A DNA stretch of 64,000 bases from Anaerolineaceae bacterium (lineage in GTDB: Bacteria; Chloroflexota; Anaerolineae; Aggregatilineales; Phototrophicaceae), in the NCBI GenBank assembly GCA_020634135.1, contig JACKCG010000007.1, forward strand, positions 81,550-145,549, in the 5' to 3' direction. This document shows, piece after piece, positions 6,311-44,454 of this stretch (positions are counted from its first letter, which is position 1; every line of letters begins with the position of its first letter). Under the pieces are notes generated by a model. The model was not told the DNA's origin and ran no database searches. It saw only the letters and a program-made list of their open reading frames with translations. The position numbers and the translations under genes were made by a program.

Positions 6311-6315
6311 CTGGG

Positions 6316-7155: not shown

Positions 7156-7167
7156 ACCTATCCCTCT

Positions 7168-17095: not shown

Positions 17096-18862
17096 TCAAT
17101 GAGACGGCGGCAGGCCATTCATGACGTGGGTACGCTGGTAAATCCGCTGGACATCCCGGTTAAAAATACGCCGCAGGATCGCCACCGCTGTAGCATATGT
17201 GGGGTCTACGCCAGTATAGCTCAAGCTGCCCGCCCCCAGGTTATGCCCTTTGCTCATAGGCGTATCTGACGCATAATGCAAGAATCCGATGTCAAAAGAC
17301 ACACCGTACAGGTTCACAATCTCGTTATAGGGATGACGTTTGGGCCGGAATGCCTCATAGATGGCCGAAAGATACGGCCCGGCTTCCATCTCAATATCGG
17401 TGTACCCTTCATGGTAAAACACGCTCATATAGCGCGGATTTTGCAGGAATGTGCCCGGCGCACTGATGGCCTTCTGATTGTCCAGCACCATCCCAAACGC
17501 CATGTAAGAAGCAATATCATAGGCTGAAAAACTGTTGTCGAACAGATAGGTGTTCTGCGAATGTTCATCATGCACCACGTTCGGGATCATAACATCCCCG
17601 ACGCGCCCATTCAGAGTCGCGGCCTTGCCCATGATATATACCCCCATCAGATGACCGACACGTTCGGTAATCCGGCTGAGGATTTCGTAAGCAGCCATCC
17701 CTAACGGATAGTCAATGTTCAAAATCACCGCATCACTCTGGCTGAGCTGCGCCTGAGTGAACCCATCGGCCACCCGCGAGTCCAGCCAGTCAGCGCGCAG
17801 CTTATTAACCTCAATCACCTGGGATTCGATGTCAAAACCGCTGCGGCTGGAAATCCGATGGATGCCTATACTCTTTTCGTCAGCCGCCAGCATATCATGC
17901 GTTCGCTTATTGCCATCCACCAGATACTTCTTCAACACATAGTAGAGGAAGTTATCCAGATTTTTCGAAGCGCTCTCGTTTTTAATCTCATGATACTCGG
18001 TCAGAAGCTGCTCATAGCCGCAGGTCTTAATATATTCCAGCAGGTTTTCTTCCTCGCGCCGGGCAAACCCGGTGAGCAAATTCACGAGGGAATGGGTATT
18101 GCTGGAAACAAAGTAAACCGGGCGTTGTTCCAGATCAACTTCGTTATTCAACTGGTCTTGCAGTTCCGCCCACCAGTAAGCCGTCGCCCGCCGGTAATCT
18201 GCCAGGGAACCGGATAGAAGTTGCAGGCTGATCTGCTTACGTCGCTGCGACATCCGGTACAGGGTATCGAAAAACGCCACACCCCAGATGATCTCCAACC
18301 GGCGCAGATCATCTACCGCTAGGCGCAGTTCGCCCGCCAGTATGGCCGCTTCGTCATCCGTCAGGGGTGTCTGGCGGCCTTGATTGTCGCGCAGGAAGGC
18401 TTTGGTATCCCCACCCTGCAACAGCCGGTAGAATTTATTCCACTCGATCTGATAAGCCGTCAGGATCGGCACCAGGTCATCAATATCCGACCGACTGGCG
18501 ATAAATACCGCCAGGGTATTGCTCCCATTATGATGCATCCGACGGCGACGGCCAGGCGCTACCACGCGCGGCCATTGTGAGAGGTCAGTATAGCCCGCCT
18601 CATAAAAGGAACGTTCCAACTGGCCGACCAGCACCATGTCCACTTCTGCCATACATGGCGGCAAACGCAAACTGGAATACACCAACGCAGAGGTATCCGG
18701 CTCGGCACGACGGGCATGAACATGCAGCGATGACTCCATCGCCATGTGACTTTCTTCCAGCGTTTCCACCTGCACAGTATGAGTCGAACGCAGCAGCGAA
18801 TAATAGGTTCGCATGTAGAGTTCGATTTCTTCACTGCCAGTCTTTGGAACAGTACGATCCAT
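17096..18862 (-). CDS. Uncharacterised 588-aa protein with a C-terminal nucleoside phosphorylase/nucleosidase (PNP_UDP_1)-like domain
   Basis: C-terminal ~240 aa: AVILNIDYPLGMAAYE...GVYIMGKAATLNGRVGDVMIP...TDIEMEAGPYL resembles AMP nucleosidase / uridine phosphorylase cores. The N-terminal ~340 aa is not recognised. Confidence 0.55.
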   Translation of the reverse strand: MDRTVPKTGSEEIELYMRTYYSLLRSTHTVQVETLEESHMAMESSLHVHARRAEPDTSALVYSSLRLPPCMAEVDMVLVGQLERSFYEAGYTDLSQWPRVVAPGRRRRMHHNGSNTLAVFIASRSDIDDLVPILTAYQIEWNKFYRLLQGGDTKAFLRDNQGRQTPLTDDEAAILAGELRLAVDDLRRLEIIWGVAFFDTLYRMSQRRKQISLQLLSGSLADYRRATAYWWAELQDQLNNEVDLEQRPVYFVSSNTHSLVNLLTGFARREEENLLEYIKTCGYEQLLTEYHEIKNESASKNLDNFLYYVLKKYLVDGNKRTHDMLAADEKSIGIHRISSRSGFDIESQVIEVNKLRADWLDSRVADGFTQAQLSQSDAVILNIDYPLGMAAYEILSRITERVGHLMGVYIMGKAATLNGRVGDVMIPNVVHDEHSQNTYLFDNSFSAYDIASYMAFGMVLDNQKAISAPGTFLQNPRYMSVFYHEGYTDIEMEAGPYLSAIYEAFRPKRHPYNEIVNLYGVSFDIGFLHYASDTPMSKGHNLGAGSLSYTGVDPTYATAVAILRRIFNRDVQRIYQRTHVMNGLPPSH

Positions 18863-19249: not shown

Positions 19250-20671
19250 CTATTCCCACACTTTTACTGGTTTCTCTGCGACATCCTGCAAGGCTTCTAT
19301 GATTTTGTAGTACCCCGTACACCGGCACAGATTCCCGGTGAAACTCTGTTGAATCTGTTCCAGAGTAGGATTAGCATGTTCCTCCAGGAGTTTCGCCCCA
19401 GCCATCACAAAGCCCGGCGTGCAGTAGCCGCACTGCACCGCCCCATGTTCCACAAAGGCTTCCTGCACTGGATGCAGGCGGTTGTCCTCAGCTAACCCTT
19501 CAATGGTCACAATCTCAGCACCATGCGCCCTTGGAGCAGGCACAAGACACGACATTACCGCCGCACCGTCCAAAAACACCGTACAGGCGCCACACTCACC
19601 TTCCCCACAGCCCTCTTTCGTACCCGGAAGGCCGCCCTCTTCACGCAAGAGGTGTAACAGCGACTTTTCCTGGCCGGTGGCAAATGTCACCGATTGGCCG
19701 TTGATGGTAGTTTCAATAGGCTGTCCATCCTCATGTGCAACGGAGTGCGCCAATTTTTGCGAGTTCAGCGCCGCACCCCACAACATAGCCGGAGACTGCG
19801 GCCAATCCGCAGCCTGCTGGTTGGTCGCTAACGCCCGCAGCGCCCGCAGCACCAGCACTTTTATCATTTCAGTCCGATACACCGCCGTCCCCCGCACATC
19901 ATCAATTGGTGAAGGCGCAGCAGCCGCCAGCCGGGCAGCATTCGCCATGACTTCCGGCGTCAGCGTCCGCCCGACCAATGCCCGTTCTGCAACCGGAGCA
20001 TGAATAATGGTTGGGGCAACACTGCCCAGGGTGATTGTAGCACGAGTCACTGTGTCGTCATCGAAGGACAGCACAACGGCAACATTGACAACAGAAATAG
20101 CCTGCGTTCGCCGCAACCCCAATTTAAGAAAGATACCCCGCTCCGTCCGCGATAACGCGGGGAAAGTGATCGCCGTCAGCATTTCGTCCGGGCGCATCAC
20201 CGTCTGGCGCACACCTGTATAAAAATCAGCCAGCGCCACCGTGCGTTCGCCTTCCAGAGATAACAGGCTGACTTCTGCACCCAGCGCCATCAGCGGCGTA
20301 ATCGTGTCGTTAGCGGGCGAAGCCGTAATCAGATTCCCCGCCACCGTTGCCCGGTTGCGAATCTGTGGAGCACCGACCTGCCAGCACGCCTGCGCCAGCG
20401 GCAAGGCACGCTGCACCAATAGCGTATTGGCAACCACTTGATTATGTGTAACCAGCGGCCCTAACCGCACTTGATCGCCATGCAGCGTCATGTCGGCCAG
20501 GCCAGGCACCCGGGTAACATCAACCAGTACATCCACGCCAGGGCGCTGTTGGCGCTCCAGCTCAAGCAGAATATCCGTTCCCCCGGCAATGATCCGCGCC
20601 CGTTCCCGATACTGCGCCAGCAATTCCAGCGCTTCTGCTAATGATGCAACACTATAATAGTGATTCCACAT
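19250..20671 (-). CDS. Fused FAD-binding (CoxM/XdhB-like) and [2Fe-2S] (CoxS-like) subunit of the molybdenum hydroxylase
   Basis: N-terminal [14 protein letters not shown]_binding_5 and CO_deh_flav_C regions. C-terminal [12 protein letters not shown] and CGYCTPG...CRCTGY iron-sulfur motifs. The ATG at 20671 (MWNHYY) is preferred over the ORF-track start at 20752. Confidence 0.88.
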
Positions 20672-20809
20672 AACCTTCTTGTACCTTTTTTGTTCACTGT
20701 GTCGAATAGTCCGGCAAACAGGCTCAGGCTGCTGCCGGGTAGCTGCTGACATGCACAGATCGTACTGACCTGTACATTACCATGTGCCCTTGCCGGGCGC
20801 TACAACCAA

Positions 20810-21424
20810 TCAAGACTTAAGCGGTTCGATTTCCATCACCGTTACCGGGTTGATGTTGATAATACAGGTCTGCTGGTACTCGGTACGAGTCGTCACCCGG
20901 CGATCCCAGGTATGAACATGTCCGTGTACCATATAACGAGGCCGGTACCACTGAAGAAAACGCAGCAGACTGCCAAATCCCCGATGCGGCCCATCCTCTC
21001 CATCATGGATACCCTGTGGCGGGGAATGCGTCACCAGCACATCCACCCGACCATGCTGTAAGCGATGAAACTGCAGGTAGGGCGCGGCGCCGACGACCAT
21101 ACCGCGCATCTCCCCTTCCGTATACTGTATGCCTCGATCATTGTAACGGATTGATCCCTCCAGGCCATAAAATGAGAGATTCTGGAACGTCAGGAGCCGC
21201 CGGTGCAGGTCTTCCCCACCCGGCGGTTTTTCATCATAGTTGGTATCGTGGTTGCCACGTACATAAAATAATGGCACATTCAGAATAGATGTAATAAATT
21301 CCAGATACGCGGCAGGTAAATCACCGCAGCTCACAACCAGTTCAATATCAGAATAGTAGCGCCGCAGGTTCACCGCGCTTTCCATTTGCGGCATGACCGT
21401 ATCACTAAGAAATAGTATTTTCAC
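20810..21424 (-). CDS. Calcineurin-like metallophosphoesterase
   Basis: ILFLSDT, CGDL, RGNHD, LVTHSPP and GHVH motifs. Confidence 0.8.
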   Translation of the reverse strand: MKILFLSDTVMPQMESAVNLRRYYSDIELVVSCGDLPAAYLEFITSILNVPLFYVRGNHDTNYDEKPPGGEDLHRRLLTFQNLSFYGLEGSIRYNDRGIQYTEGEMRGMVVGAAPYLQFHRLQHGRVDVLVTHSPPQGIHDGEDGPHRGFGSLLRFLQWYRPRYMVHGHVHTWDRRVTTRTEYQQTCIININPVTVMEIEPLKS

Positions 21425-21484: not shown

Positions 21485-22315
21485 CTATCCATTCACTTTT
21501 TGAGGTGTGCTGACTTCGCGCATCGGTTGACCATCACCGCCCCGCCGTATCATGATAATCTCACCCAGAATACTTACAGCAATTTCATGTGGTGTTTCAG
21601 CATTCAATTCCAGGCCGATGGGCGCATGGATTCGCGCCAACTGCGCATCAGTTATACCGCGTTCCGCTTTTAGCTGCTGAACGGTTAGTGCCCAGCGGCG
21701 GCGACTGCCAATCAGACCGATATACGCCGCCTCAGTCTCCAACAAGGCCGGAATCAGACTGATGTCTACCGGCAAACCGCGAGTCACAGCCGCGACATAG
21801 GTTTGTGTGCTGATCGTCATGTGCTGGGCGATTTCACCGGGTGCGCAGACAAGATAACCATCCATTCCCGGCAGATAGTCAGGCGTACACAAATCGGGCC
21901 GATCATCGGAGACCACGACACGATAGCCAGCCCATTTCGCTAGTTCAGCCAGCGCCTTGCCCACATGTCCACCGCCAATCACCAGCACCGTTGGCGAAAG
22001 ACCCGCTGGTTCGATAAACACCTGCACCGTACCACCACACACACCGGCATCTCCCGCTTCCATGTCATTGAGCGAATAGGAACACAACCGCGTTTTTCCA
22101 TCCTGAAGCGCAGCCAGAGATTCGGCAATGACCCGCGACTCTAACATGCCACCACCCACTGTCCCGACAATCGAACCATCAGCACGTACCAGCATTTTGC
22201 TCCCGGCATGGCGCGGCACGGAACCCTGGGCACTCACAACTGTCGCCAGCGCCACCGGCTCGCCCTGCTCCTGTGCCTCCAGTAGTGTCTGGTACACGAT
22301 CCGGTCAGCTTCCAT
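21485..22315 (-). CDS. xdhC: XdhC/CoxI-family molybdenum hydroxylase maturation factor
   Basis: ALATVVSAQGSVPRHAGSKMLVRADGSIVGTVGGG and Rossmann VLVIGGGHVGKALA. The ATG at 22315 is preferred because the longer ORF-track form overlaps the upstream gene by ~100 bp. Confidence 0.85.
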   Translation of the reverse strand: MEADRIVYQTLLEAQEQGEPVALATVVSAQGSVPRHAGSKMLVRADGSIVGTVGGGMLESRVIAESLAALQDGKTRLCSYSLNDMEAGDAGVCGGTVQVFIEPAGLSPTVLVIGGGHVGKALAELAKWAGYRVVVSDDRPDLCTPDYLPGMDGYLVCAPGEIAQHMTISTQTYVAAVTRGLPVDISLIPALLETEAAYIGLIGSRRRWALTVQQLKAERGITDAQLARIHAPIGLELNAETPHEIAVSILGEIIMIRRGGDGQPMREVSTPQKVNG

Positions 22316-24875
22316 TCTCGACAACCTCCACCTCACCCAACAGCAGCCGCTGCTGTTCGTCACCATCAGTGGGAGACAATCGCGTCCCCGTAACCGGGTC
22401 ATACAATCCCATCATAACCCGGTATTGTCCCGATGGTGCTTCTGTCAAGTTTACCACAAATGTGTCCTGAAACCCGCCAGGAAGCCAGTTGCCCGGCGGC
22501 AGTGTCCCGCCTCCTGGCCGCCCATCATATTGTCCGTGAATCACATCCGAATCGTCCAGCAGGTGGATGAACACTTTGTAGTCTCCCTGCGCCGTCCCAT
22601 CTGTATACCAATCGAGTGAAATTGCCAACTGGCCGGAATCGGGTTGGTAATCCAGGGCAGCCGCCGCCAGGATAATTGCGCCATCCTGGAATGCTGACAC
22701 GTTTGACGCCGGGGCTTCCGCCTGAAGATCACTTCCATCATATGCCATATGATAGTACGGCATATAGAAGCCGCCGGGGACATCGGCCACAATGCGAATC
22801 TTCAGAGGGTTGCTGAAGAGTTCTCCCGGAATCAGCGTGGGGATATCCAGCCAGCTACCCGGTAAGGCGGGTATCCAGCGGCGAGCGACAAAGACATCGT
22901 TAGCGAATACATCAAATGTGCCGGCCATCATGGGGTGAACCCGTGTCACGAGCAGAATAGGCGTTCCGGTAGCCAGCGTATCATCAAACCGCAGATCAAA
23001 TGACTCCTCGCCGGTGAGCAACCGTCCACCGTCCACCATGTGGCAATCGCAGCCGATATAACTCATCTGGCGCACTTCAGAGGGAAAACCGGGCAGTCGC
23101 TCCGCATTCGACCAGGTATAGGCAGCAGCACGCTCATCAGCAATATCAGCCACATCCACGCTGCTCAAAATGGCAGCATCTTCCGTAAGGTAATTCTGCA
23201 CTATACTCGGCTGCCCCGCTCCAGCCAGATGAGAAATCGCATCCCAATCAGGGCGATATATCCCCTGGAAATCCGCCGCCAGCGCCACATTATATTGAGA
23301 ATCCAGATCAACCGGGAAGCCTGCCAGCAGTTCACCATACACACCGGAATCGGCAACCATCCCCAGGCCGTAGCCGTGTCCCACGCCGTAACTGGCAATA
23401 TAATCGGGTTTGTGATGTAGCAAAAATTCCGCTACTGCGCCGGGGCCGGTGCGCCAGTAATCTGCCGCGCCGGGGGTGGTCAGTCCTACAATATCCAGTG
23501 TGGTTCTCCCTCCCACATAACGCATCATGCCCACATCATGAACCGCAACAACTGCATCTTCTGGCGTGTTGGCCGTCAACCAGCGTGCCATTTGCAGCGG
23601 TTGTTGATAGACGTAATCTACATTGAGAGCAAAATGCCCCTGGAACTGGACACCCGTCCATAATGCGGCCACCAGAGTCAGGCCCAAAATGCCGTAAGTG
23701 ATGAACCGCCAGCGAGTGGCGATAAGTGCCAGACCATAGGCAAAGAGTGGAAAAAGCAGCGCCAGCAGCGGCATCTGATAGCGCTTGAAATGCCAGAAAG
23801 CCGTATCCAGCGTAGCAACAGCCGCTGTCCCTGCCAGCAACCAGCCAACCAGCATCAGCCCTAAAGCCCGCCGGTCACGCTGGATAAACAGCCGACCCAA
23901 CCCAACAAAACTCACCAGAGGGACAGTGAACAGCACATACAGGCCCTCACGGGAGCTGATTCCGGTAATAAACTCGCGCCACATGCGGACAAACTGACCG
24001 ATGATACGCCCAATGACATCATCCCAGTAAAACGGTACAATCCCCAATACCGATTTAGCCGCATTTCCCGAAGCCACCGCCGAGCCGGTCACGAGCACAT
24101 TCACGAGCGGCTGCACCCCAACCGCCAACACGGGCAGTAGCAACCAGACGTGACGACGCCGCAGCGGGCGCGATTCCCAGAAGACAACCGGCACGGCCAG
24201 CAGTGCCAGCACTCCGCCCTCAGGGCGAATCAGGGCCAGTAGCGCTGCTGCCACCAGACTCTGCCGGAAATATCGCTGGTTGACCGCATACAACGTACTT
24301 AGCGTCAGGAAAATAACGATGCCGGTTTCCATGCCACTCATAAAATGCCAGGAAACCGGGCCTGACAAGCCGAAGATCACCACCAGCCCGACAGCCAGCC
24401 ATTCCGGCACATTCCACGAACGAGCAAGCCGGTAGACCAGCCACAACGAGCCGGCCAGCGCGGACGCGCCAAGAATCATCGCCCATAGACTGAGATTCAG
24501 GCCCTTGAAGCCCAGGTTATAGCCCGCTGCCAACAAATAGGGATACAGGAAACTGGTCGCGCCGGAGGAAGCAGGCAGGCCGGGGTTATAGACATACGGC
24601 TGGCCGACGGCAAGCTGCCTGGCGTACTGGAAATGAATGTAGACATCATCCAGCGGCAGCAGGAATTCCCCCCGCCCTGCTGCCTGGCTGGTCATGGCAT
24701 ACACCAGGAAAACCGCGCCAGCCAGCATCACACACACTGCCCATATAAAAAGGGAGCGTCTACGAAAGACGCTCGCCGGGGTTTGGTTCGATTTGAGATC
24801 TGAGGCAATCAAAATGTTTGGTCTTTGTTCAGGTCCTGATAGATTAATTCGAGTACCCATCCGCGAACGTGTCAA
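22305..24875 (-). CDS. Large polytopic membrane protein, GT-C-fold glycosyltransferase-like, with a ~400-aa extracytoplasmic C-terminal domain
   Basis: 856 aa with ~12 TMs. An [13 protein letters not shown] acidic motif follows TM1, resembling the DDYYH motif of the 981-2579 product. The C-terminal half is soluble. Confidence 0.55.
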
Positions 24876-25851
24876 TCATCAGGCGGACATCTGCTCCCAG
24901 CGGGTAGAGAATCGGACAGGTAGCGCCATACTGGACATATTCGCGCACTTTCGCCTTGACTTCCTCCGGTGTGCCGGAAGCCGTAATCATCTGCACCACA
25001 TCATCTGGCACAAGCCGCATCGCATCCAGAATCTGGTCCTCGGTGGCCGGCCATGTCAACACCTGGCCGATTTCATCCAGCAGTTCCTGGCTCACACCGC
25101 TGGCCTTCATGATGTGTGGCTGCTGGCCGAGATACTGTGTAACGAGCTTCCGGGCAGCGTCCAGCGCCTTTTTCCGGTTATTATCCACCGAGCAGACAAC
25201 CAACTGCGGGCGATCAATCGAGTCGAGCGTGCGTCCGGCCTGCTTCGCCCCGGCCTCCAGTTGGGCCAGCGCGCCATCGTTATACTTCGGTGAGACAAGA
25301 TAGTTCAGAACGGCGCCATCGGCGATCTCGCCAGTGAGCGCCATCATCTTGGGGCCAGTTGCGCCGATATAGATCGGCACGTTGCGCGGGTCTTTGCGAC
25401 CATGCACAACGTCTAGTTCGACATCATCCAGGTGGACAAATTCACCATGAAATGTCACCCGTTCCCGGTGCAGCAAAGCGCGCACCACGGTTACCACTTC
25501 ACGCATCGCCAACAGTGGCTTCTGCCGGTTGATGCCGACTTTCTGCGCCAGCGGATCCCACCACGCGCCAATTCCACAAATGATCCGGTCTGGCGCAAGG
25601 TCATCCAGCGTCAGGTAGGTCGCGGCAATTACCCCGGCATTACGAGTCCAGTTGTTAATCACCCCGGAGCCAATCTTAATCCTGCTGGTCGTCGCAGCAA
25701 AAGCGGCCATCGGCACGATTGCATCGCGCACAAGCCGGCTCTCCGCCTGCCATACCGCCTCGAAACCCCGCGACTCGGCATATTGTACATACTTAATCGC
25801 ATCCTGAAGCGAATGCGCGTCTTGCAAATAAAGAGCAACACGATCAGCCAC
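24844..25851 (-). CDS. Luciferase-like (LLM class) F420-dependent oxidoreductase
   Basis: N-terminal [20 protein letters not shown]-barrel signature, ~335 aa, next to cofC/D/E. Confidence 0.75.
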
Positions 25852-25952
25852 GATAATATTCCTTATAAGTCAATGAATAGGCATATTTTGTTCTGGCCGG
25901 AATTGAATAAGGGGCTGACGCCCCTTATTGAGAAGGCAGAAGCCTTCAAATA

Positions 25953-26567
25953 TTACATGATTTCGCCAACTTTTGCTAATTCCCGGTAGATTTCCAGGTC
26001 AGCAGGCAGGTCAATATCCAGCAGCAGTCGGGGGGATTGATACTGTTTAACATCCGCGCCTGCCTCTTGAGCCAGCTCAATGTGCCGCCGGAAACTTCCG
26101 GGACCATAAGCATAGTCAATGACTCCAGGGGGGCGGATGAAGAGCGCGTTCGTGCCATCTTCATTCTGATCGGTAGCGATCACGACGGTCTGGTTATATG
26201 GACCCAACTCAATCATCGCAGTCAGGTCTTCCGGCGCAACCAAAGGCAGGTCCGCTGGCAAAACGAGGACGGCTGCACTGTTCCAGCGCGTCACCACCTG
26301 GGTCGCTCGCATCAGCGCGTTATTTAACTCAGGAGCGCCGCTTTCCTGCACCGTGCGTGCGCCAAATTCACGGGCAATCGCCAGCGCCCGGCTGTCACGG
26401 CTGATGACCAGCGTCCCCATAATCTGGGGGACGTTACGCACAGTAGCCAGCACATGCCGCAACATCAGTTCGGCCAGCTGTTCCCGTTCTTCGGGCGAAA
26501 GCACCTGCGCCAGACGGCTTTTGGCCCGGTTCAGTGGTTTGACTGGAATAATTGTCCATATTCCCAT
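25953..26567 (-). CDS. cofC: Phosphoenolpyruvate / 2-phospho-L-lactate guanylyltransferase (CofC/FbiD)
   Basis: IIPVKPLNRAKSRLAQVLSPEEREQLAELMLRHVL N-terminal signature, ~200 aa. Confidence 0.85.
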   Translation of the reverse strand: MGIWTIIPVKPLNRAKSRLAQVLSPEEREQLAELMLRHVLATVRNVPQIMGTLVISRDSRALAIAREFGARTVQESGAPELNNALMRATQVVTRWNSAAVLVLPADLPLVAPEDLTAMIELGPYNQTVVIATDQNEDGTNALFIRPPGVIDYAYGPGSFRRHIELAQEAGADVKQYQSPRLLLDIDLPADLEIYRELAKVGEIM

Positions 26568-26671
26568 AAGTCTTCAGCGCAAGCCCGCTTAAACCTGGGC
26601 CTGTCGCTTGAACCTCCTTTCGTTAGTGGCTCTATATCAGTAAAAAGCGTCTACCTTACCACTACCTATCT

Positions 26672-27604
26672 TCAAACCCAGGATTGAACCCACTGTAGCA
26701 TGTTTTCCGCTACGGCAATCCGGTCCGATTCTGAATTCATAACAATTTCAAAACTGGTCGTATGCTGCACTGGCAGTGGGAGTGTCTTATCTATGGTATC
26801 CACAATGAAGCCGTTTATTACGTCACCATAATACTCAGCGACAATCTGAGCTGACTGTTCATATCCTAACTCTACCATCAATTTTGCAGCAGGACCCTTA
26901 ACAGCTTTCCCCCCAATAATTGGGGAGATAGCCACACGTGGCACATCGCGGGATACGATAAGATCACGCATCCCCGGTACCGCCAGAATCGGCGCGATAG
27001 ATAACCAGGGATTCGACGGGCCGATAACGATGATGTCCGCATTTTGCAGTGCGGTATGAGCAGCGGGCGTGATAGCAGCATTCTCTATCCCGGCAAAGCG
27101 GAGCGATTTTACTACAGGTTGCCAGCGATAGCGTACAAAATAGGTTTGAAACGCCAGTTCGCCATGTTCAACCGTATCAACTATCGTTGCTACCGGCACA
27201 TCGGTCATCGGTAACACACAATGCTGTACCCCTAAAGCTGTATTCAGCCTCCTGGTGACCTCGGTCAGTGTCTCTCCGGCGGCCATTGCATTTGTGCGCA
27301 GCAGATGGGTCGCGATGTCCTGGTCGCCCAACTGAAACCAGGGTTCTTCGCCATAGCGTCGCGCCGCATCCAGAACGGCGTGCGTATCGCCTTCAATCCC
27401 CCATCCGTTGGTTTTACTTACCAGGCCGGAGAGCGTATACATGATGGTATCTAAATCGGGGCAAACGCGCAGACCATAATGCCAGAAGTCATCGCCCGTA
27501 TTCACAATAATGGTCAGGTTTTCCGGCGGCAGGATTTGCGCCAGGCCAAACGCCAGTTTCGCGCCACCTACCCCGCCAACCAGTACAACGACATTTATCG
27601 CCAC
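26672..27604 (-). CDS. cofD: 2-phospho-L-lactate (EPPG) transferase CofD/FbiA
   Basis: VLVGGVGGAKLAFGL and NTGDDFWHYGLRVCPDLDTIMYTLSG motifs. The GTG at 27604 is the proposed start. The longer ORF-track form to 27754 runs 160 bp into the upstream nitroreductase gene. Confidence 0.85.
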   Translation of the reverse strand: MAINVVVLVGGVGGAKLAFGLAQILPPENLTIIVNTGDDFWHYGLRVCPDLDTIMYTLSGLVSKTNGWGIEGDTHAVLDAARRYGEEPWFQLGDQDIATHLLRTNAMAAGETLTEVTRRLNTALGVQHCVLPMTDVPVATIVDTVEHGELAFQTYFVRYRWQPVVKSLRFAGIENAAITPAAHTALQNADIIVIGPSNPWLSIAPILAVPGMRDLIVSRDVPRVAISPIIGGKAVKGPAAKLMVELGYEQSAQIVAEYYGDVINGFIVDTIDKTLPLPVQHTTSFEIVMNSESDRIAVAENMLQWVQSWV

Positions 27605-28221
27605 AATACACTCGATTCTAGCGGGCGGCGGTCTCTGACCCGCGACTCCGCAGGAAAGCCCAGGGTAATCAAGCCCTGCGGCTGCCAATCCGCCGGAAGC
27701 GACAGAGCAGTCTGTACGACATCCGGGCAAAACAAGGGCGCACACAACCAGCACGCCCCTAAACCCGCATCATGCGCTGCCAGCAGCAGACTCTGCCCGG
27801 CCATCGCTACACTTTGTACCGCCATCACAAATTCGCTGCGGCTGCGGCGTTCATCGGGGTAGCTATCCATATCGGCCATTGTCAGGCAAACCACGATGAC
27901 GACGGGCGCAGTCGTAATGCGTTCATACGAACGAGTCGTATCGGCAATGATGGCGGCTTCAGGCACACTGTCAGCCTCCAGGTCGCGCCGTAAGCGTTCG
28001 CCCATCGCCACAGCCAATTGTGTCTTCCGTTCCACAGTCTCCACCACCGCGAAACGCCAGGGTTGGCGGTTATGGGCAGAAGGCGACCAGATTGCCGCCG
28101 TTAGAAGCGTTTCCAAAACCGCACGCGGCACCGCTTCAGGCCGGTAGCGGCGAATAGAACGCCGCCCCCGAATTGCAATCAGCAGGCCAGATGGCGGTGT
28201 GCTGCCAGCAGCATCACTCAA
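27595..28221 (-). CDS. Stand-alone nitroreductase-family protein, candidate dehydro-F420-0 reductase (FbiB C-terminal domain equivalent)
   Basis: RRSIRRYRPEAVP...AAIWSPSAHNRQPWRF nitroreductase signature. Has a 4-bp overlap with the cofE stop and a 10-bp overlap with the cofD start. Confidence 0.65.
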   Translation of the reverse strand: MSDAAGSTPPSGLLIAIRGRRSIRRYRPEAVPRAVLETLLTAAIWSPSAHNRQPWRFAVVETVERKTQLAVAMGERLRRDLEADSVPEAAIIADTTRSYERITTAPVVIVVCLTMADMDSYPDERRSRSEFVMAVQSVAMAGQSLLLAAHDAGLGACWLCAPLFCPDVVQTALSLPADWQPQGLITLGFPAESRVRDRRPLESSVLWR

Positions 28222-29030
28222 CGGTACAAATCCTGTTCAGGAGAGCGAACCAGGTTGGCAGCCCGGCCATCCGCAGGCGGATAATTGAGACCACGCAGAT
28301 GCATCACAGGTCGGCCTTCATTCGCCTCACCACTCAGCAAGTGAGCCGCCGAAGCCACCAGGTCGGCATAGCCCATCGTACTGATGTGCAATTTGCGCCC
28401 GAAAAGATCATCCTGACCGCGCAGATCAAGCACCGCCGGCAGCCCGGCAACCCCAATCGCCACACCGATATTACCCATCCGAAACGGCCTGCCATGCGAG
28501 TCACTAATCACAATCCCTACCGATGCGCCCGTTTTCGCTTTCAGGGCATCATGAATCCGGCAGGCCGAGGCGTCAGGATCAATGGGCAACAGCAACGCCC
28601 AATCGTCACTCCCGTTGACATTCGACTGGTCAATTCCGGCATTGGCGCTGACAAATCCTTGCCGGTGTTGTGTAATCAGGATTCCAGGCGCCTGCCGTGA
28701 AATCCGCAAACTCTCCCGCAGCACCAGTTCAACGATGCGCGGGTCTTTGTTTGTCTCTGCGGCCAATTGCTGCGCTTCGGTACTTACTTCAACCAAATTC
28801 AAATCTACCATACGACCTTCAGATTTGGAGACAATTTTGGATGTTATCACCAAAGCATCACCGTCTTGCAGCACCAACCCAGCCTGTGTCACACCTTCCA
28901 GAATGATCTGTACCAGATCATCACCGGGCTGAATCAGCGGAAGTCCCGGCAATGCGGTAATCGTCAAAGTTACATTTTGAGTTGGCAAACTATTCAATAC
29001 CGGTGATACGAATACCGGCCCCTTTGACAC
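28218..29030 (-). CDS. cofE: Coenzyme F420:L-glutamate ligase (CofE)
   Basis: [30 protein letters not shown] and NAGIDQSN motifs. The GTG at 29030 overlaps fno by 41 bp, and an alternative TTG at 28988 would remove that overlap. Confidence 0.87.
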
Positions 29031-29661
29031 TATATGCCTTGTTAATATACAGCAGCACGGGCGTTAATGCCTCGACGGCCACTGCGTTTGCCAGCGGCCC
29101 GGCATCCACACCCCGCATCCCGGTGGCCTCAACCAGTTTCATCACGTCAGCTTTAGCCGCCGCATCATTCCCACATACTAACACGTCGCAATCCACCACA
29201 TGGTTCGGGTTACGCAGATGCTCGGCGCTCACATTCTGAAAAGCAGCCACAACACGCACGGTATCGCCCAGATATGCCTGCGCCTCCAGTGCTGCCGAAT
29301 GCCCCTCCGGCACATGCACTGTACGGACCTTTGGCGGTTGAAGCGGAACGGTCAAATCCACCAGCACCTTACCGGCCAGGCAGTCTTTGACTCCTTCAAG
29401 TGTCGGTTTATGGGCTGAATACGGCACACTCAACACCACCAGGTCGGCCTGTGTAGCCGCCGCTCCGTTTTCCAGACCGGTAAGATAGTCTCCGCCCAAT
29501 TCAGCATTCATCTCAACCGCACGACTGGCAGCGCGTTCAGGGTCCCGCGAACCGATAATCACGTTATATCCGTTGAGCGCCCACCGCATCGCCAGGCCGG
29601 AGCCTTCTTTGCCTGTGCCACCTAAAACAGCGATTGTAAGCATCTGCTTTGCATCTATCAT
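28990..29661 (-). CDS. npdG: NADPH-dependent F420 reductase (Fno/NpdG)
   Basis: IAVLGGTGKEGSGLAMRWALNGYNVIIGSRDPERA signature. The start is probably ATG 29661 or 29643, because the ORF-track start at 29730 overlaps ssnA. Confidence 0.83.
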   Translation of the reverse strand: MIDAKQMLTIAVLGGTGKEGSGLAMRWALNGYNVIIGSRDPERAASRAVEMNAELGGDYLTGLENGAAATQADLVVLSVPYSAHKPTLEGVKDCLAGKVLVDLTVPLQPPKVRTVHVPEGHSAALEAQAYLGDTVRVVAAFQNVSAEHLRNPNHVVDCDVLVCGNDAAAKADVMKLVEATGMRGVDAGPLANAVAVEALTPVLLYINKAYSVKGAGIRITGIE

Positions 29662-29690: not shown

Positions 29691-31034
29691 TTACAGTTGT
29701 TTTACGGCATGAGCCGCGTAGCGTTCCCATATCTGGGGCGCTAATGCCAATGCTTCACGAGCGATTACGGTCTCGTCCAGCATGAGAAGCTCACGATCTA
29801 ACATCAACGGTTTTCCGGCGACGATTGTGGCAGTCACCATAGAAGACTCGAAGCCAAACACAATATGCCAGGGGATATTCCCGTCTGTCAGCGGGGTGAA
29901 CGGGTGATAATCCACAAAGATTATGTCAGCAGCCGCCCCCACCCGCAATTCCCCCAGGGTCTGGCCGGGGAAGAAGCGCTCAATAAGCCGGGCATTATTT
30001 ACCGTAGCAATGCGCGCAATATCGGACCCGTTTGCCTGACGCGGATCACGGTGAGCGACTTTATGCAGCAAATAGGCCGTTTTCCACTCTGCCCACATAT
30101 TGTTGCTGAAGCCATCGTTGCCCAGCGCGACGTTCATCCCCGCTCCAAGCATCGTTTCCAGTGCCATCGCGCCGACCCCATTATTCATGTTTGAGCGCGG
30201 CTGATGCGAAATCCACGTTCCGCTCTCGCTCAGTATCCGGCGTTCTGCTTCGTCAATATGCACACAATGAGCAGCGATGGTCTTATCGCCCCATACACCA
30301 TACTCATCCAGACGCTGTACGACCCGTTTACCGCTTCGCCGCAGACTGTCTTCCTCATCGGCCTCATGTTCGGCCACATGGACATGATAGCCGGCGCCCT
30401 CAGGCAGCGCATCGGCACAGGCGCGCAGCGCGTTGTCATCAAGCGTCAGGCTGGCGTGCAGGCCAAATGTCCCGGCGATAAGCGGGGATTGGTTGTTTCT
30501 CATAAAACGGACATTTTCGGCAATCCCGGCGTACATCTTCTCTTCGCCGTCGCGGTCTGTCACTTCATAACACAACACGGCGCGCAGTCCTGCCAGACTA
30601 ACCGCATCCGCAATCTCATCCAAACTGCCCTCAATGAAATTCGGGCTGGCATGATGGTCAATCAGCGTAGTTGTGCCATGCTTCACAGCATCTACCAGAC
30701 AAACCAGGGCGCTCATCCGCACCGCATCAGCATCCAGCGCCTTATCCAGCGGCCACCATAACCGCCTCAGAATCTGCGGGAAGTCCGCTGGTGGCGCCCC
30801 CGGGATTGCCATACCCCGCGCATAGGCCCCGTAAAAATGCGTGTGAGCGCAGATGTTTCCCGGCATGACCAGTTGACCACGCGCATCCAGACGTGGCGTT
30901 TGCGGGTATTGTTCGAGTAAGTCCTTTGTGCGCCCTAATGCCTGAATCAGGCCATCTTCAATATAGAGTGCTTGGTCGCTTAAAACCTGGTTGTTTTCCC
31001 CCCAGGTGATGAGCGTACCGTTAATAATCAGCAT
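29691..31034 (-). CDS. ssnA: SsnA-family amidohydrolase (selenium-dependent Mo-hydroxylase-linked aminohydrolase)
   Basis: PGNICAHTHFY, LWWPLDKALD, LIDHHASP and PRSNMNNGVG match my recollection of E. coli SsnA. Amidohydrolase superfamily metal ligands are present. Confidence 0.82.
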   Translation of the reverse strand: MLIINGTLITWGENNQVLSDQALYIEDGLIQALGRTKDLLEQYPQTPRLDARGQLVMPGNICAHTHFYGAYARGMAIPGAPPADFPQILRRLWWPLDKALDADAVRMSALVCLVDAVKHGTTTLIDHHASPNFIEGSLDEIADAVSLAGLRAVLCYEVTDRDGEEKMYAGIAENVRFMRNNQSPLIAGTFGLHASLTLDDNALRACADALPEGAGYHVHVAEHEADEEDSLRRSGKRVVQRLDEYGVWGDKTIAAHCVHIDEAERRILSESGTWISHQPRSNMNNGVGAMALETMLGAGMNVALGNDGFSNNMWAEWKTAYLLHKVAHRDPRQANGSDIARIATVNNARLIERFFPGQTLGELRVGAAADIIFVDYHPFTPLTDGNIPWHIVFGFESSMVTATIVAGKPLMLDRELLMLDETVIAREALALAPQIWERYAAHAVKQL

Positions 31035-31037
31035 TGT

Positions 31038-31712
31038 TCAATGCCATCCTTCCAATGGAACATTCACAAACACTGGGCCGCCAGCCGCAGCAATCCGCGC
31101 CAGGATTAAGGCCAGCAGTTGATCTTCCTGCTGACCACTATCCAGATACAACCGGTCAGCGCCCGACTCGGTAGACGCCACAACGGCCCCGTGCTGGCAT
31201 AAGACACGGATTTCGGGCGCTATGTTGGGATATTGCGCGTCCCAGGTGCGATCTGATTGTATCCCACGATTACGCAGCGCATGATAGATACGATCCACGA
31301 AGTAATCCGCCGGGCTGTACAGGTCGTTGATCTGCCGGGCATGAACAAACCGGTCCCATGTTGTGTAGATAAAGGAAATGGGACGATGGGCAGGATTCAA
31401 AATGGGGGGCGATTTTTCGAGCAGCGCCCCCAACTGCACTTTGTAATATACGTCATCCGCTCGCGGGTGGTCAGCTTGTTTCGGCAGCAAATCCCGACGG
31501 CGAACCAACTCCACCCCGGTACGGCGGGCATAATAATGGATACCCCCGTTGCGCTCTTTGAACACTCCACTCAAGAAAAAGGCCAGGTACTCGGCGTGAA
31601 TGCCCTGCTTCAAACGCGCCTGCGGGATACGATACCAGTGCGCATCCTGCGCGTAAGCCAGGTCACGCTTGCGATTGATAACGCCCACGAGCACGCGGTC
31701 TTCCGGGAACAT
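31038..31712 (-). CDS. Hypothetical protein (224 aa), operon-embedded
   Basis: A 3-nt gap to both neighbours on the same strand. No motif recognised (AHWYRIPQARLK...IHYYARRTG). Confidence 0.55.
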   Translation of the reverse strand: MFPEDRVLVGVINRKRDLAYAQDAHWYRIPQARLKQGIHAEYLAFFLSGVFKERNGGIHYYARRTGVELVRRRDLLPKQADHPRADDVYYKVQLGALLEKSPPILNPAHRPISFIYTTWDRFVHARQINDLYSPADYFVDRIYHALRNRGIQSDRTWDAQYPNIAPEIRVLCQHGAVVASTESGADRLYLDSGQQEDQLLALILARIAAAGGPVFVNVPLEGWH

Positions 31713-33373: not shown

Positions 33374-34393
33374 CTATCCCTCCACATCCTGATCTGCTTC
33401 AGATTGTGGCACGCCGGAGGCGCGCTGTCCAGGCGACGTGTCCAGATTGGATCGAGACGCCACAATGTACAGGGGACGCTGCCGCACTTCATCATAGATT
33501 CGGGCGATATACTGCCCCATGATGAACAGGAAGAACAACTGGAACGCGCTCACTATCAGCAGCAGCAAAATCGTTGTGACCTGCCCACCCAGGAATTCAT
33601 AACCCAGAATCACCCGCAAGATACCGATGACCGGTATCGCGATGACGGCCAGCAGCCCCAGGATGAAGCTAACATAAACCATGATCTGCAAGGGGAAATA
33701 AGAAAAGCCTGTTACCGCATCCATCGCAAAACGGACCATTTTACGAAGGGGGTATTTAGTCTCTCCCCATTCCCGTGCCTCGCGCACATACGAAACGCCG
33801 GTCTGCTTGAAACCCGCCCAACTCGTCATACCCCGGATAAAGCGGTTATGCTCGCGCATCGTCCGCAGCACATCTGCCACATTGCGGTCAATTAAGCGGA
33901 AATCACCCGTATCCAAGGGGATGTCCACGTCCGTAATGCGGTAGATCATCCGGTAGAACAGCTTGGCTGTGAACAGTTTGAACCAGCTTTCGCCTTTACG
34001 CTCCTGGCGAATCGCGTACACCACTTCATATCCGGCCTTCCAGCGTTCGATCATCTCCAGAATGAGTTCCGGCGGGTCCTGCAGGTCGGCGTCAATGACC
34101 ACCACCGCGTCACCCGAAGCATGGTCTATCCCCGCAGTAACCGCCAATTGGTGCCCGAAATTGCGGGCAAAGTTCACCACTTTGATGCGGCTGTCTTTGG
34201 CCGCTAATTCGGAAAGCATCTCGAAGGAGCGATCACGGCTGCCATCGTTGACCGTAACAAGTTCCCACTCTTCACCAGTGGAATCCATGACCAAAGTGAT
34301 ACGATCATAGAGCTTCTGAATGTTGCCTTCCTCATTATAAATAGGGGCTACAATCGAATAACGTGGGTTTTCACTCATGTTTGCTTCACCCAT
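33374..34393 (-). CDS. GT2 polyprenyl-phosphate glycosyltransferase (GtrB/ArnC/DPM1-like)
   Basis: YSIVAPIYNEEGNI, VNDGSRD and IDADLQDPP (DxD) motifs, plus two C-terminal TMs typical of GtrB-like enzymes. Confidence 0.87.
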   Translation of the reverse strand: MGEANMSENPRYSIVAPIYNEEGNIQKLYDRITLVMDSTGEEWELVTVNDGSRDRSFEMLSELAAKDSRIKVVNFARNFGHQLAVTAGIDHASGDAVVVIDADLQDPPELILEMIERWKAGYEVVYAIRQERKGESWFKLFTAKLFYRMIYRITDVDIPLDTGDFRLIDRNVADVLRTMREHNRFIRGMTSWAGFKQTGVSYVREAREWGETKYPLRKMVRFAMDAVTGFSYFPLQIMVYVSFILGLLAVIAIPVIGILRVILGYEFLGGQVTTILLLLIVSAFQLFFLFIMGQYIARIYDEVRQRPLYIVASRSNLDTSPGQRASGVPQSEADQDVEG

Positions 34394-35627
34394 CCTGTAA
34401 GGCTCGTTGAACTGCGGATAAGTCAGGTTGTACCCTGATCCCCTGTGAAACCGACTGTTGGGCGCTCTTGATGTCTTTCAGCCCGTTGCCTGTAACCAAC
34501 AGCGCAACACGTTCTTCAGGTTGAATCAAGTTCGATTGTACAGCACGTTGCGCCCCGGCGAAAACCGCTGCCGCCGCCGGTTCAGCAAAGACACCGGTCA
34601 ACCGTGCTAACTGCGGAATCGCCGCAAGAATCTCAGAATCCGGCACGGCGATAAACGCGCCATTCGTCTCCCGTACCGCCCGCAGCGCCTTAACCCGGTC
34701 ACGTGGTAGACCGGCGGAAATGCTGTCTGCGATAGTCTGCGCCTGCACCGGATGCATCTCTTCTGGTTTCGTATGATCTTGCCAGGCTCGCACCAACGGT
34801 GAACTGCCTACTGCTTGTACACCGATTAAGCGTGGAATCCGCTGTATCCACCCCAATTGGAATAATTCCCAGAACCCTTTATGGACACCCCCGATAATGC
34901 TCCCGTCGCCCACACTGACCACCACCACATCCGGCACATCCCAGCCCGATTGTTCGGCCATCTCATAAGCAACGGTTTTCTTCCCCTCGGTGGTGAATGG
35001 GTTAATGCCCGTATTGCGGCAGTACCAATCTTCCGTCACACACATATCGTAACACAGGTCGAAGGCAACATCATAAGATGCTTCCACCAGCAGTACCTTC
35101 GCCCCATAGACCAACAGCTGTGCAATCTTGGCTTCCGGTGCAGTGGCGGGAACAAAAATAACAATGTTCAGTCCCACCGATGCCCCTACACCGGCCAGAG
35201 CCGCCGCTGCATTGCCGGTACTGGCGGTACTGACCACCTGAACACCCTGCTCTAACGCACGGGCAACGACCATCGCACTGGCCCGGTCTTTGAGTGAGGC
35301 TGTCGGGTTCTGGCCGTCATCCTTCACCCAGGCCTGGCGTACTCCCAGAGCCGTAGCCAACCGTCCCGCATCATACAGCGGTGTAAAGCCCACCCGCAGC
35401 GGCGGGACAACCGATCCGGCATCCAGCGGCAGCAAAGCGCGATAACGCCACATAGACTGCTGTTGATTACGCAATGCGTCCCGCTCAAGTTGCGTGCTGA
35501 GCAGTTCATAATCGTATAACACATCCAGTGTGCCAACCTGCCCGCACGCCGGACAGAAGTATGGCACCTCATCCGGTTGATACGAACGACCACATACAGT
35601 ACAACGTAGCTCTTTAATTGTTGCCAC
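34386..35627 (-). CDS. thrC: Threonine synthase family PLP enzyme with an N-terminal zinc ribbon
   Basis: CTVCG...CPACG ribbon, NPTASLKDRAS (PLP lysine), STGNAAAA and VSVGDGS. Confidence 0.8.
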   Translation of the reverse strand: MATIKELRCTVCGRSYQPDEVPYFCPACGQVGTLDVLYDYELLSTQLERDALRNQQQSMWRYRALLPLDAGSVVPPLRVGFTPLYDAGRLATALGVRQAWVKDDGQNPTASLKDRASAMVVARALEQGVQVVSTASTGNAAAALAGVGASVGLNIVIFVPATAPEAKIAQLLVYGAKVLLVEASYDVAFDLCYDMCVTEDWYCRNTGINPFTTEGKKTVAYEMAEQSGWDVPDVVVVSVGDGSIIGGVHKGFWELFQLGWIQRIPRLIGVQAVGSSPLVRAWQDHTKPEEMHPVQAQTIADSISAGLPRDRVKALRAVRETNGAFIAVPDSEILAAIPQLARLTGVFAEPAAAAVFAGAQRAVQSNLIQPEERVALLVTGNGLKDIKSAQQSVSQGIRVQPDLSAVQRALQDG

Positions 35628-43704: not shown

Positions 43705-43822
43705 CAGAACTCCTTTGTGGTAGAGGGAGTGTAGCACGCCGGGAAAATGTTCACAAGCAGGCCAACGGGCAAACCGCCCAATGCTCTGCCCGCCCTTTTG
43801 TTTCGTCCTGATTTAGTGTAGA

Positions 43823-44381: not shown

Positions 44382-44454
44382 TGGGCAGTACAGGACTTGA
44401 ACCTGTAACCGCGCGGATGTAAACCGCGTGCTCTGCCAATTGAGCTAACTGCCC
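44382..44454 (-). tRNA. tRNA-Val (anticodon TAC)
   Basis: Manual cloverleaf: acceptor GGGCAGT/ACTGCCC, D stem GCTC/GAGC, anticodon stem CGCGG/CCGCG with loop TTTACAT, T stem ACAGG/CCTGT with loop TTCAAGT. CCA is not encoded. Confidence 0.9.

Follow-up and report, generated by a model that had tools for sequence, protein, structure and literature searches.

A predicted F420-dependent counterpart of YgfK in a purine island of Chloroflexota

A 64-kb stretch of DNA from a soil/sludge-type member of the Anaerolineae (Chloroflexota), on contig JACKCG010000007.1 and referred to here as the window, carries genes for the maturation and recharging of cofactor F420, together with a gene for a luciferase-like (LLM) oxidoreductase, inside what family assignments identify as a selenium-dependent molybdenum (Mo)-hydroxylase purine island. 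All genes of this block and of the island are on the minus strand. The arrangement probably represents the form that the reductive uric-acid (2,8-dioxopurine) pathway takes in Chloroflexota (Anaerolineae), with the oxidoreductase YgfK being replaced by a two-protein hydride relay mediated by F420. YgfK is the single redox enzyme missing, and the LLM and the F420 reductase Fno are the single extra redox system, so an F420 relay is the most economical reading of the gene content. The initial annotation of the window knew of no described link between F420 and this purine/urate pathway. This is out of date: Li et al. 2025 (Life Metab, PMC12507026) had already proposed an F420-dependent luciferase-family “yanthine reductase” for Chloroflexota, using an SsnA similarity network and 15-gene neighborhoods alone. 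The system described here is best viewed as a putative variant of a known pathway that was already predicted in print and that comparative genomics appears to support. Several aspects are new: the embedded F420 tail genes and Fno; at least eight gene orders in two phyla, including Acidobacteriota; Fno-LLM pairs without cofCDE; an LLM-amidohydrolase pairing that extends down to 48% identity; the exceptional conservation of the LLM; and the absence of HyuA and YgeX from this type of cluster.

In the characterized pathway, urate is converted to 2,8-dioxopurine by XdhD/XdhAC (Li et al. 2025, PMC12507026; Liu et al. 2025, bioRxiv 10.1101/2025.04.24.650524). YgfK (DOPOR), a 1032-aa Fe-S/FMN/FAD enzyme that was reconstituted anaerobically, is the NADPH:2,8-dioxopurine oxidoreductase that dearomatizes the ring, and its product is detectable only when coupled to SsnA, which opens the ring (Li et al. 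2025, PMC12507026). HyuA, YgeW and YqeA (with a yield of ATP), YgeY, and YgeX then complete the conversion to pyruvate and ammonia (PMC12507026; bioRxiv 10.1101/2025.04.24.650524). The other known 2,8-dioxopurine reductase is UacX of C. difficile, a PydA homologue. Neither the text nor the supplement of PMC12507026 mentions cofC/D/E, the nitroreductase or Fno; the parallel preprint from the Dodd laboratory mentions neither F420 nor Chloroflexi; and a literature search found no other paper that ties F420 to the reductive uric-acid pathway.

The LLM oxidoreductase and the F420 genes

Gene families were assigned by NCBIfam and Pfam profile searches against curated cut-offs (Table 1), and proteins of the E. 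coli K-12 ygf/yge locus were compared with the window by tblastn. YgfK, which the initial annotation had listed as missing, has no tblastn match in the window (E<1e-3) or in 80 related loci that carry the LLM gene (E<1e-5). The genes of interest are transcribed in the order SsnA, Fno, CofE, nitroreductase, CofD, CofC, LLM. The limits initially given for the module, 24844-29661, coincide at one end with the stop codon of the LLM gene (24844) and at the other with the probable ATG of Fno (29661, from a start analysis of an open reading frame (ORF) that is open up to 29730). The profile searches also bear out the gene families that were named, and the position of the module between ssnA upstream and GT-C/xdhC/xdh genes downstream on the same strand. 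The ends of the genes were described as overlapping or near-abutting, and this is true of most junctions: SsnA and Fno are separated by 29 nt, Fno and CofE overlap by ~8 nt, CofE and the nitroreductase by 4 nt, the nitroreductase and CofD by 10 nt (GTG 27604 versus the nitroreductase stop), and the LLM and the next ORF, of 856 aa and coding for a membrane protein of ~851 aa, by 17 nt. It is not true on either side of cofC, where gaps of 104 nt (from CofD) and 101 nt (to the LLM) occur.

CofC/FbiD, CofD/FbiA and CofE all exceed their curated cut-offs, as is taken to mark bacterial F420 biosynthesis. CofD likely starts at GTG 27604; its Pfam match begins at residue 55 of the ORF. The stand-alone nitroreductase-fold protein has the FbiB C-terminal domain family TIGR03553 as its best NCBIfam match (141 bits, below the cut-off of 250), and the M. 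tuberculosis FbiB C-domain (4xom, 4e-29) as its best sequence match in the PDB. The presence of an FbiB-C-like nitroreductase as a stand-alone protein would imply the bacterial phosphoenolpyruvate (PEP)/dehydro-F420-0 route. This route (FbiD/FbiA/FbiB) was reportedly described by Bashiri and colleagues in 2019. As initially noted, genes for the Fo core (cofG/cofH or fbiC) are outside the window: Pfam searches found no radical-SAM domain and no Fo synthase (FbiC or CofG/CofH) in the large ORFs of the 64 kb. Elsewhere in the window, at 5408-8040, panC and panB are followed by a gene for a DUF2520/Rossmann protein that also matches Pfam F420_oxidored (4.7e-12). This protein is probably a ketopantoate-reductase-type enzyme; the match is one expected of a generic NADP-Rossmann domain, so it was not counted as a second F420 gene.

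What kind of enzyme is the LLM? Its Bac_luciferase domain (PF00296) spans residues 12-311 of 335, so that the TIM barrel accounts for the whole protein. The top 16 NCBIfam matches are all F420-dependent LLM families (1e-54 to 5e-12), none of which attains its cut-off, and the first FMN family to appear is SsuD, at 5e-10. Similarly, the ten best sequence matches in the PDB are all F420 enzymes, beginning with Mer (8qq8, 3e-43, aligned over residues 15-319) and continuing with FGD1, Adf and fHMAD. By these comparisons, the LLM is nearer to the F420-dependent than to the FMN-dependent subfamilies. Its proposed role is that of an F420H2:2,8-dioxopurine reductase, most likely a functional stand-in for YgfK/UacX. 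Identity with Mer itself was considered and rejected: the protein scores 186 bits against a cut-off of 276 for NF002619 and 184 against 349 for TIGR03555, and there is no one-carbon (C1) context, with profile searches finding no tetrahydromethanopterin (H4MPT) or folate C1 genes in the island. Homologues of the LLM number in the thousands, the top 120 being 88-92% identical and coming from metagenome-assembled genomes of Anaerolineae/Chloroflexota. The group is compact, with 373 representative clusters at E<=1e-30. Its closest full-length members share 60, 51, 51, 50 and 48% identity with the LLM, after which identity drops to ~35% for Mer-like proteins.

How might such a relay operate? CofC, CofD, the FbiB-C-like nitroreductase and CofE would turn Fo, supplied by a synthase encoded elsewhere or by uptake, into F420-n. 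Fno would then reduce F420 with NADPH, and the LLM would pass the hydride from F420H2 to 2,8-dioxopurine, dearomatizing the ring; the 2,8-dioxopurine itself would come from the selenium-dependent Mo-hydroxylase. Hydrolysis of the reduced ring by SsnA would pull the unfavorable reduction forward, and the carbamoyltransferase, carbamate kinase (with a yield of ATP), YgeY and pyridoxal phosphate (PLP) enzymes would finish the breakdown. Gene content, family membership, the lack of YgfK and the conserved linkage are observed; which substrate is reduced, which way electrons flow and whether F420 is the cofactor actually used are predictions made from them.

Conservation of the linkage in relatives

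A scan of one genome per species yielded the 80 loci (numbered with the prefix L), each with an LLM orthologue that is 70-92% identical to that of the window. They come from Aggregatilineales, Phototrophicaceae, Thermoflexus, Ardenticatenaceae, Promineifilaceae, Caldilineaceae and several Acidobacteriota. When the E. coli proteins and 27 proteins from the window were mapped onto these loci, the full SsnA-Fno-CofE-nitroreductase-CofD-CofC-LLM order was found in 26 of the 80, and purine-island genes were found <=10 kb from the LLM gene in 54. Synteny in relatives, the check suggested in the initial annotation, is strongly conserved and survives both rearrangement and the loss of cofCDE.

The rearranged loci are the most informative on this point. 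In at least eight differing gene orders, from two phyla, the LLM still adjoins SsnA-, HyuA-, carbamoyltransferase (CTase)- or XdhD/YgfM-like genes, in some cases without cofCDE. For example, the order in L046 is YgeY-CTase-FeS-XdhMo'-SsnA'-LLM-HyuA-XdhFS-XdhMo. In L047 it is SsnA'-deaminase-YgfM-like-XdhD-like-XdhC-LLM, with the XdhD-like protein 37% identical to E. coli XdhD; in L049 and L054, this order is extended by HyuA after the LLM, and the identity to XdhD is 38%. SsnA' and the LLM are divergent in L037 and L039. Other arrangements are YgeY-CTase-Fno-LLM (L059), CofD-CofC-LLM-XdhC-XDH (L035, L038 and L045; XDH, xanthine dehydrogenase) and, in an acidobacterial locus, SsnA-LLM (L080). 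Fno lies near the LLM in three purine clusters that lack cofCDE (L041, L059 and L062), and is directly adjacent to it in L059. Since the linkage persists through rearrangement and loss of cof genes, the juxtaposition of LLM and purine genes is not accidental.

The same pairing is seen in more distant relatives. LLM proteins at 60% and 51% identity keep the order CofC-LLM-membrane protein-phosphoesterase(-XdhC). Among those at 48-50%, the LLM gene of L088 lies between genes for HyuA-like and SsnA-like amidohydrolases, and that of L090 overlaps the start of an ATZ/TRZ-type amidohydrolase gene. A HyuA-like gene adjoins the LLM gene in L046, L049 and L054, is close by in L088, and lies at a distance of ~8 kb in L071. 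The neighbor of the LLM in five Acidobacteriota loci is a conserved 540-aa Amidohydro_3 protein, and three of these loci also encode a CN-hydrolase. Taken across loci, these patterns indicate that what stays constant is the pairing of the LLM with a cyclic amidohydrolase, in most cases near Mo-hydroxylase genes and in many together with Fno. Thus, the suggestion in the initial annotation that F420 replaces the YgfK step by way of Fno and the LLM agrees with the synteny, the absence of YgfK and the promoter and terminator scans described below, but the conserved unit is not the six-gene module on which that suggestion was built; the purine genes are consistently accompanied by the LLM and, often, by Fno, and cofC/D/E and the nitroreductase are co-located with the LLM in some lineages only.

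Two groups of loci have features of their own. In the Acidobacteriota/Blastocatellia (L063, L067, L069, L070, L071 and L075), the LLM (73% identity) sits beside Amidohydro_3 and a CN-hydrolase of the beta-ureidopropionase type, with a HyuA-like gene in addition in L071. This layout of reductase, ring-opening hydrolase and ureido-hydrolase is as in reductive pyrimidine catabolism, and no XDH gene lies within 10 kb of the LLM gene in these loci. L087 (a contig from SRR24957567, 1-16069) has the gene order of the window and neighbors that are 52-69% identical, with an LLM at just 51%. It has no SsnA gene, only a fragment of the 224-aa gene that adjoins ssnA in the window, and a FolD gene at the contig edge. 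In this single case, selection on the LLM may have been relaxed or changed after the loss of its hydrolase partner.

Weighing the alternatives

Several observations count against the proposed F420 relay. First, cofC is flanked by two gaps of ~100 nt, and a strong hairpin is present in the one that precedes the LLM gene. In relatives, the cofC-LLM spacer is 18-360 nt long and in many cases contains GC-rich hairpins or repeats, with almost no gap in some; clear terminators lie between cofC and the LLM gene in some relatives (L005 and L043). It follows that one transcript probably does not always cover both the cof genes and the LLM gene, which makes a single module less likely and leaves the functional link unaffected. 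Second, the LLM scores below all curated family cut-offs, so its substrate cannot be read from homology, and its closest characterized relative, Mer, is a pterin enzyme. Third, tblastn with the E. coli proteins yields no orthologue of HyuA or YgeX in the window. The downstream route therefore differs from the characterized one and may use different intermediates. Fourth, no Fo synthase was found nearby: a crude scan of ORFs for the radical-SAM motif CxxxCx[YFH]C gave no match in the window, nor within 10 kb of the LLM gene in any of the 80 loci. Fifth, the LLM is more conserved than the proposed catabolic role explains: across the 26 loci with full synteny, its mean identity to the window is 84%, compared with 53-71% for its neighbors (XdhMo 71%, SsnA 68%, Fno 67%, CofE 60% and CofD 53%).

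In the window itself, two strong hairpins flank the LLM gene: the perfect 10-bp stem in the cofC-LLM spacer (Table 1), and a terminator-like stem and T-run (24774-24754) just past the LLM stop, inside the next ORF. The initial annotation had named a strong terminator and promoter isolating the module as evidence that would count against it; in consensus scans such sites are no more frequent than in shuffled sequence, and the hairpins are not decisive.

It is conceivable, if unlikely, that the LLM and Fno serve purine catabolism by acting at another step or by running the other way. They could reduce urate, xanthine or a hydantoin/ureido intermediate, or they could oxidize a dihydro-intermediate, with electrons passing from F420H2 through Fno to NADP+. 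The range of linked hydrolases (SsnA-, ATZ/TRZ- and HyuA-like and Amidohydro_3), together with the Mo-hydroxylase, does not on its own single out a substrate; the absence of HyuA and YgeX means that the intermediates may differ; and the acidobacterial contexts with a CN-hydrolase look Pyd-like. However, YgfK/UacX is the only missing redox enzyme of the characterized pathway, and the adjacency of SsnA and the LLM mirrors that of ygfK and ssnA. Moreover, bacterial Fno normally runs toward F420 reduction (2021 F420 review table).

A considerably less probable explanation is that cof, fno and the LLM gene form an F420 housekeeping block that came to lie in the island by descent, with the LLM having an unrelated role under strong constraint, such as a Mer-like C1/pterin reaction. 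Such hitch-hiking is difficult to reconcile with the finding of the LLM beside SsnA, XdhD, HyuA or CTase genes in at least eight gene orders from two phyla, also where cof genes are lacking, with the lack of H4MPT/folate C1 genes in the island, or with the wide margin by which the Mer cut-offs are missed. It would nonetheless fit the similarity of the LLM to Mer and its conservation far above that of the purine genes. It would also fit the retention of cof genes and the LLM in L087, which lacks SsnA and has FolD at its contig edge, and the 16 loci that have only cof genes near the LLM, many of them on short contigs. Finally, it is very improbable that the Mo-hydroxylase, which has a fused FAD/2Fe-2S subunit, has F420 as its physiological electron partner, with Fno equilibrating F420 with NADP and the LLM peripheral: the donor or acceptor of clostridial 2,8-dioxopurine dehydrogenase is unknown and the cof genes do lie between ssnA and xdhC/xdh, but the FAD domain in XDH belongs to the ordinary NAD/FAD type, the XDH subunits have no F420-binding domain, and the tight pairing of LLM and amidohydrolase would be left unexplained.

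What would an F420 relay to 2,8-dioxopurine imply? First, the cluster would offer a concrete answer to the question of why Chloroflexi make F420: to supply an F420H2-dependent reductase for dearomatization in anaerobic-type urate/purine breakdown. A 2021 review of F420, in which the word “purine” is absent, notes that no physiological role of F420 has been studied outside Actinobacteria and treats the reason that Chloroflexi make it as an open question; the role proposed here, if correct, would be the first in Chloroflexota. The same review lists, in a table, an F420H2-dependent picrate reductase (Fht) that dearomatizes an aromatic ring by hydride transfer, a precedent for the reaction proposed for the LLM. 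Second, the LLM with Fno would be a third, non-homologous solution to 2,8-dioxopurine reduction, after YgfK and UacX. Third, it would be a small, Fe-S-free and possibly oxygen-tolerant alternative to YgfK, which is relevant to the engineering of urate-degrading probiotics. The value of these points is tempered by the fact that the idea has already been published as a neighborhood-based prediction. A broader proposal can be made only tentatively: F420 in these Anaerolineae and some Acidobacteriota may be made largely for oxopurine dearomatization, and the LLM clade (>=47% identity) plus an adjacent cyclic amidohydrolase may constitute a general, previously uncharacterized module for the catabolism of N-heterocycles, with an F420H2 hydride transferase and a ring-opening hydrolase as its two parts.

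The surrounding island and known systems

Table 1. Features of the purine island and the embedded F420 genes, in order of transcription; scores are given against curated cut-offs where these apply
Feature	Position	Strand	Evidence
8-oxoguanine-deaminase-type amidohydrolase	42349-43737	-	NF006055 707 bits vs 532
Nudix protein		-
Adenine deaminase	39723-41447	-	TIGR01178 630 bits vs 472
YgeY peptidase/ureidohydrolase	38436-39641	-	TIGR03526 474 bits vs 321; 41% to E. coli YgeY
Histidine phosphatase		-
Carbamoyltransferase (YgeW-like)	36753-37733	-	37% to E. coli YgeW, full length, E 6e-66
Carbamate kinase (YqeA equivalent)	35649-36605	-	TIGR00746 375 bits vs 358; 51% to E. coli YqeA
Threonine-synthase-like PLP enzyme	34386-35627	-	NF006050 317 bits vs 303; PDB threonine synthases 3e-57
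GT2 polyprenyl-phosphate glycosyltransferase (PgfS/ArnC-like)	33374-34393	-	NF047588 2.6e-78, below cut-off; conserved in cluster
CysK/CBS-like PLP enzyme, 464 aa	31716-33110	-	PF00291; best PDB matches cysteine synthases, 2e-30; conserved in cluster
Conserved 224-aa protein adjoining SsnA	31038-31712	-	No Pfam/NCBIfam match; found in 24 related loci
SsnA amidohydrolase	29691-31034	-	NF005540 503 bits vs 444; TIGR03314 478 vs 455
Fno/NpdG, NADPH-dependent F420 reductase, 224 aa	28990-29661	-	TIGR01915 218 bits vs 150
CofE, F420-0:gamma-glutamyl ligase	28218-29030	-	TIGR01916 255 bits vs 181
Nitroreductase-fold protein, FbiB C-terminal-domain-like (dehydro-F420-0 reductase)	27595-28221	-
CofD/FbiA transferase	26672-27604 (ORF open to 27754)	-	TIGR01819 313 bits vs 257
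CofC/FbiD guanylyltransferase, first step of F420 tail	25953-26567	-	TIGR03552 177 bits vs 105; PF01983
Perfect 10-bp GC-rich hairpin, AATAAGGGGC-GTCA-GCCCCTTATT	25906-25929	-	cofC-LLM spacer; no T-tract; terminator scan silent
LLM F420-type oxidoreductase, 335 aa	24844-25851	-	PF00296 2.8e-67
Membrane protein, ~851 aa, putative GT-C-type, directly after LLM	22305-24875	-	No Pfam match; weak LA_3751/2 glycosyltransferase match, E 7e-4
XdhC-type Mo-cofactor insertion chaperone	21485-22402	-	TIGR02964 4.6e-35; NF045664 4.8e-70
Metallophosphoesterase (YfcE-like)	20810-21424	-	PF00149 2.8e-12; conserved in cluster
XDH fused FAD-binding + 2Fe-2S subunit	19250-20752	-	TIGR02963 1.2e-95; XdhC-FeS and PucE domains
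120-aa protein		-
DUF6909 protein, between two XDH subunit genes	17096-18862	-	PF21850 734 bits; conserved in >=14 related loci
XDH-family molybdenum-binding subunit	14807-17038	-	PucD TIGR03196 2.7e-169, below cut-off
YqeB	13975-14847	-	TIGR03309 334 bits vs 220; 49% to E. coli YqeB
YqeC-MocA fusion	12651-13997	-	TIGR03172 161 bits vs 73; TIGR03310 1.5e-49

The island encodes several enzymes of the characterized pathway (Table 1). SsnA is 35% identical to E. coli SsnA over its full length, and the XDH Mo subunit shares 31% identity with E. coli XdhA and 29% with XdhD. The carbamoyltransferase scores 208 against the YgeW cut-off of 500 and is also under the ornithine carbamoyltransferase equivalog cut-off. 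YqeB and the YqeC-MocA fusion, whose YqeC and MocA parts are 34% and 31% identical to their E. coli counterparts, are maturation genes of the selenium-dependent Mo cofactor and are taken, with an XDH-family Mo enzyme, to mark a reductive uric-acid cluster. YqeC and MocA are separate proteins in E. coli. Conversely, E. coli YqeB (541 aa) is split here, its N-terminal half matching the XdhC-type protein (38%) and its C-terminal half the YqeB-family protein (49%). The XDH small subunit is one polypeptide in which the FAD domain precedes the 2Fe-2S domains, opposite to the usual FeS-FAD arrangement. The window has no YgeX orthologue but encodes two other fold-type-II PLP enzymes, of which the CysK/CBS-like one is a candidate to take the place of YgeX.

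Upstream of the first purine-island gene are a tRNA (44382-44454, minus strand) and then an 11-bp terminator-like hairpin (44349-44323), which probably mark the upstream transcriptional boundary of the island. Regulation of the island by a known RNA or riboswitch was considered and rejected, since a search of Rfam at gathering thresholds yields only this tRNA.

The 224-aa protein has an AlphaFold2 model with a pLDDT of 90.7, and its N-terminal domain resembles YTH/ASCH (PUA-like) domains (Foldseek E 2e-3, probability ~1). PUA-like folds (YTH/ASCH/EVE-type) typically bind modified bases. DUF6909 has no sequence match in the PDB, no fold match and no literature that could be found, and its model is partly confident, with the most conserved region (residues ~380-550) being the least confidently modeled. 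The 224-aa protein and/or DUF6909 occur in 25 loci and HyuA in 4, with no locus having both. This mutual exclusivity, which is confounded by lineage and suggestive at best, was the sole support for either protein being the missing hydantoinase, and the idea was rejected. The 224-aa protein was also rejected as an amidohydrolase because its fold is PUA-like and not an amidohydrolase barrel. A resemblance of the DUF6909 C terminus to purine nucleoside phosphorylase/AMP nucleosidase (an “EMEA” motif and weak matches to MTAN) was likewise discarded, as hhalign against E. coli Amn and DeoD failed (probability 0.1%). The ~851-aa polytopic membrane protein has a DD motif in its first loop and comes directly after the LLM in many relatives, including those whose LLM is just 51-60% identical. 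This GT-C-like protein and the GT2 glycosyltransferase are both conserved inside the purine/F420 island, and there is no evident rationale for the presence of envelope glycosylation genes. GT2, the GT-C-like genes, DUF6909 and the PUA-like protein are not mentioned in the pathway papers or in the supplement of PMC12507026.

How does the cluster compare with known systems? It shares with the reductive uric-acid pathway of E. coli and Clostridia a clustered set of SsnA, YgeY, carbamate kinase, YgeW-like CTase, an XDH-family Mo enzyme and YqeB/YqeC/MocA. It differs in having no homologue of YgfK/UacX, for which the LLM and Fno are proposed instead, in having no HyuA or YgeX orthologue in the window, and in the embedding of F420 tail genes, GT2, the GT-C-like protein, DUF6909 and the PUA-like protein. 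The job proposed for the LLM is the same as that of YgfK and UacX, namely a two-electron dearomatizing reduction that is paid for by NADPH and that adjoins and is coupled to SsnA. Nevertheless, there is no relationship of sequence or fold: the predicted system consists of a 335-aa TIM-barrel hydride transferase, a diffusible deazaflavin and a 224-aa Fno.

As for F420 itself, the genes resemble those of the FbiD/FbiA/FbiB route in that CofC, CofD and CofE are over their equivalog cut-offs and are accompanied by an FbiB-C-like nitroreductase. Unlike in that route, FbiB would be represented by two adjoining genes with a 4-nt overlap, Fo synthase is not co-located, and the genes sit inside a catabolic cluster. 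The LLM has the same fold as Mer, FGD, Adf and fHMAD, which are members of the same family and its best sequence matches, but its genomic setting is purine catabolism and not C1 metabolism. The picrate/dinitrophenol degradation systems of Rhodococcus and Nocardioides belong to another phylum, act on nitroaromatics whereas oxopurines are the proposed substrates here, and have no ring-opening amidohydrolase. The picrate reductase Fht is itself an LLM, and its partner is the Fno-type reductase NpdG. In those systems, as is proposed for the island, NpdG (Fno) is paired with F420H2 hydride transferases, Fht and NpdI, for the first catabolic step on an electron-poor ring.

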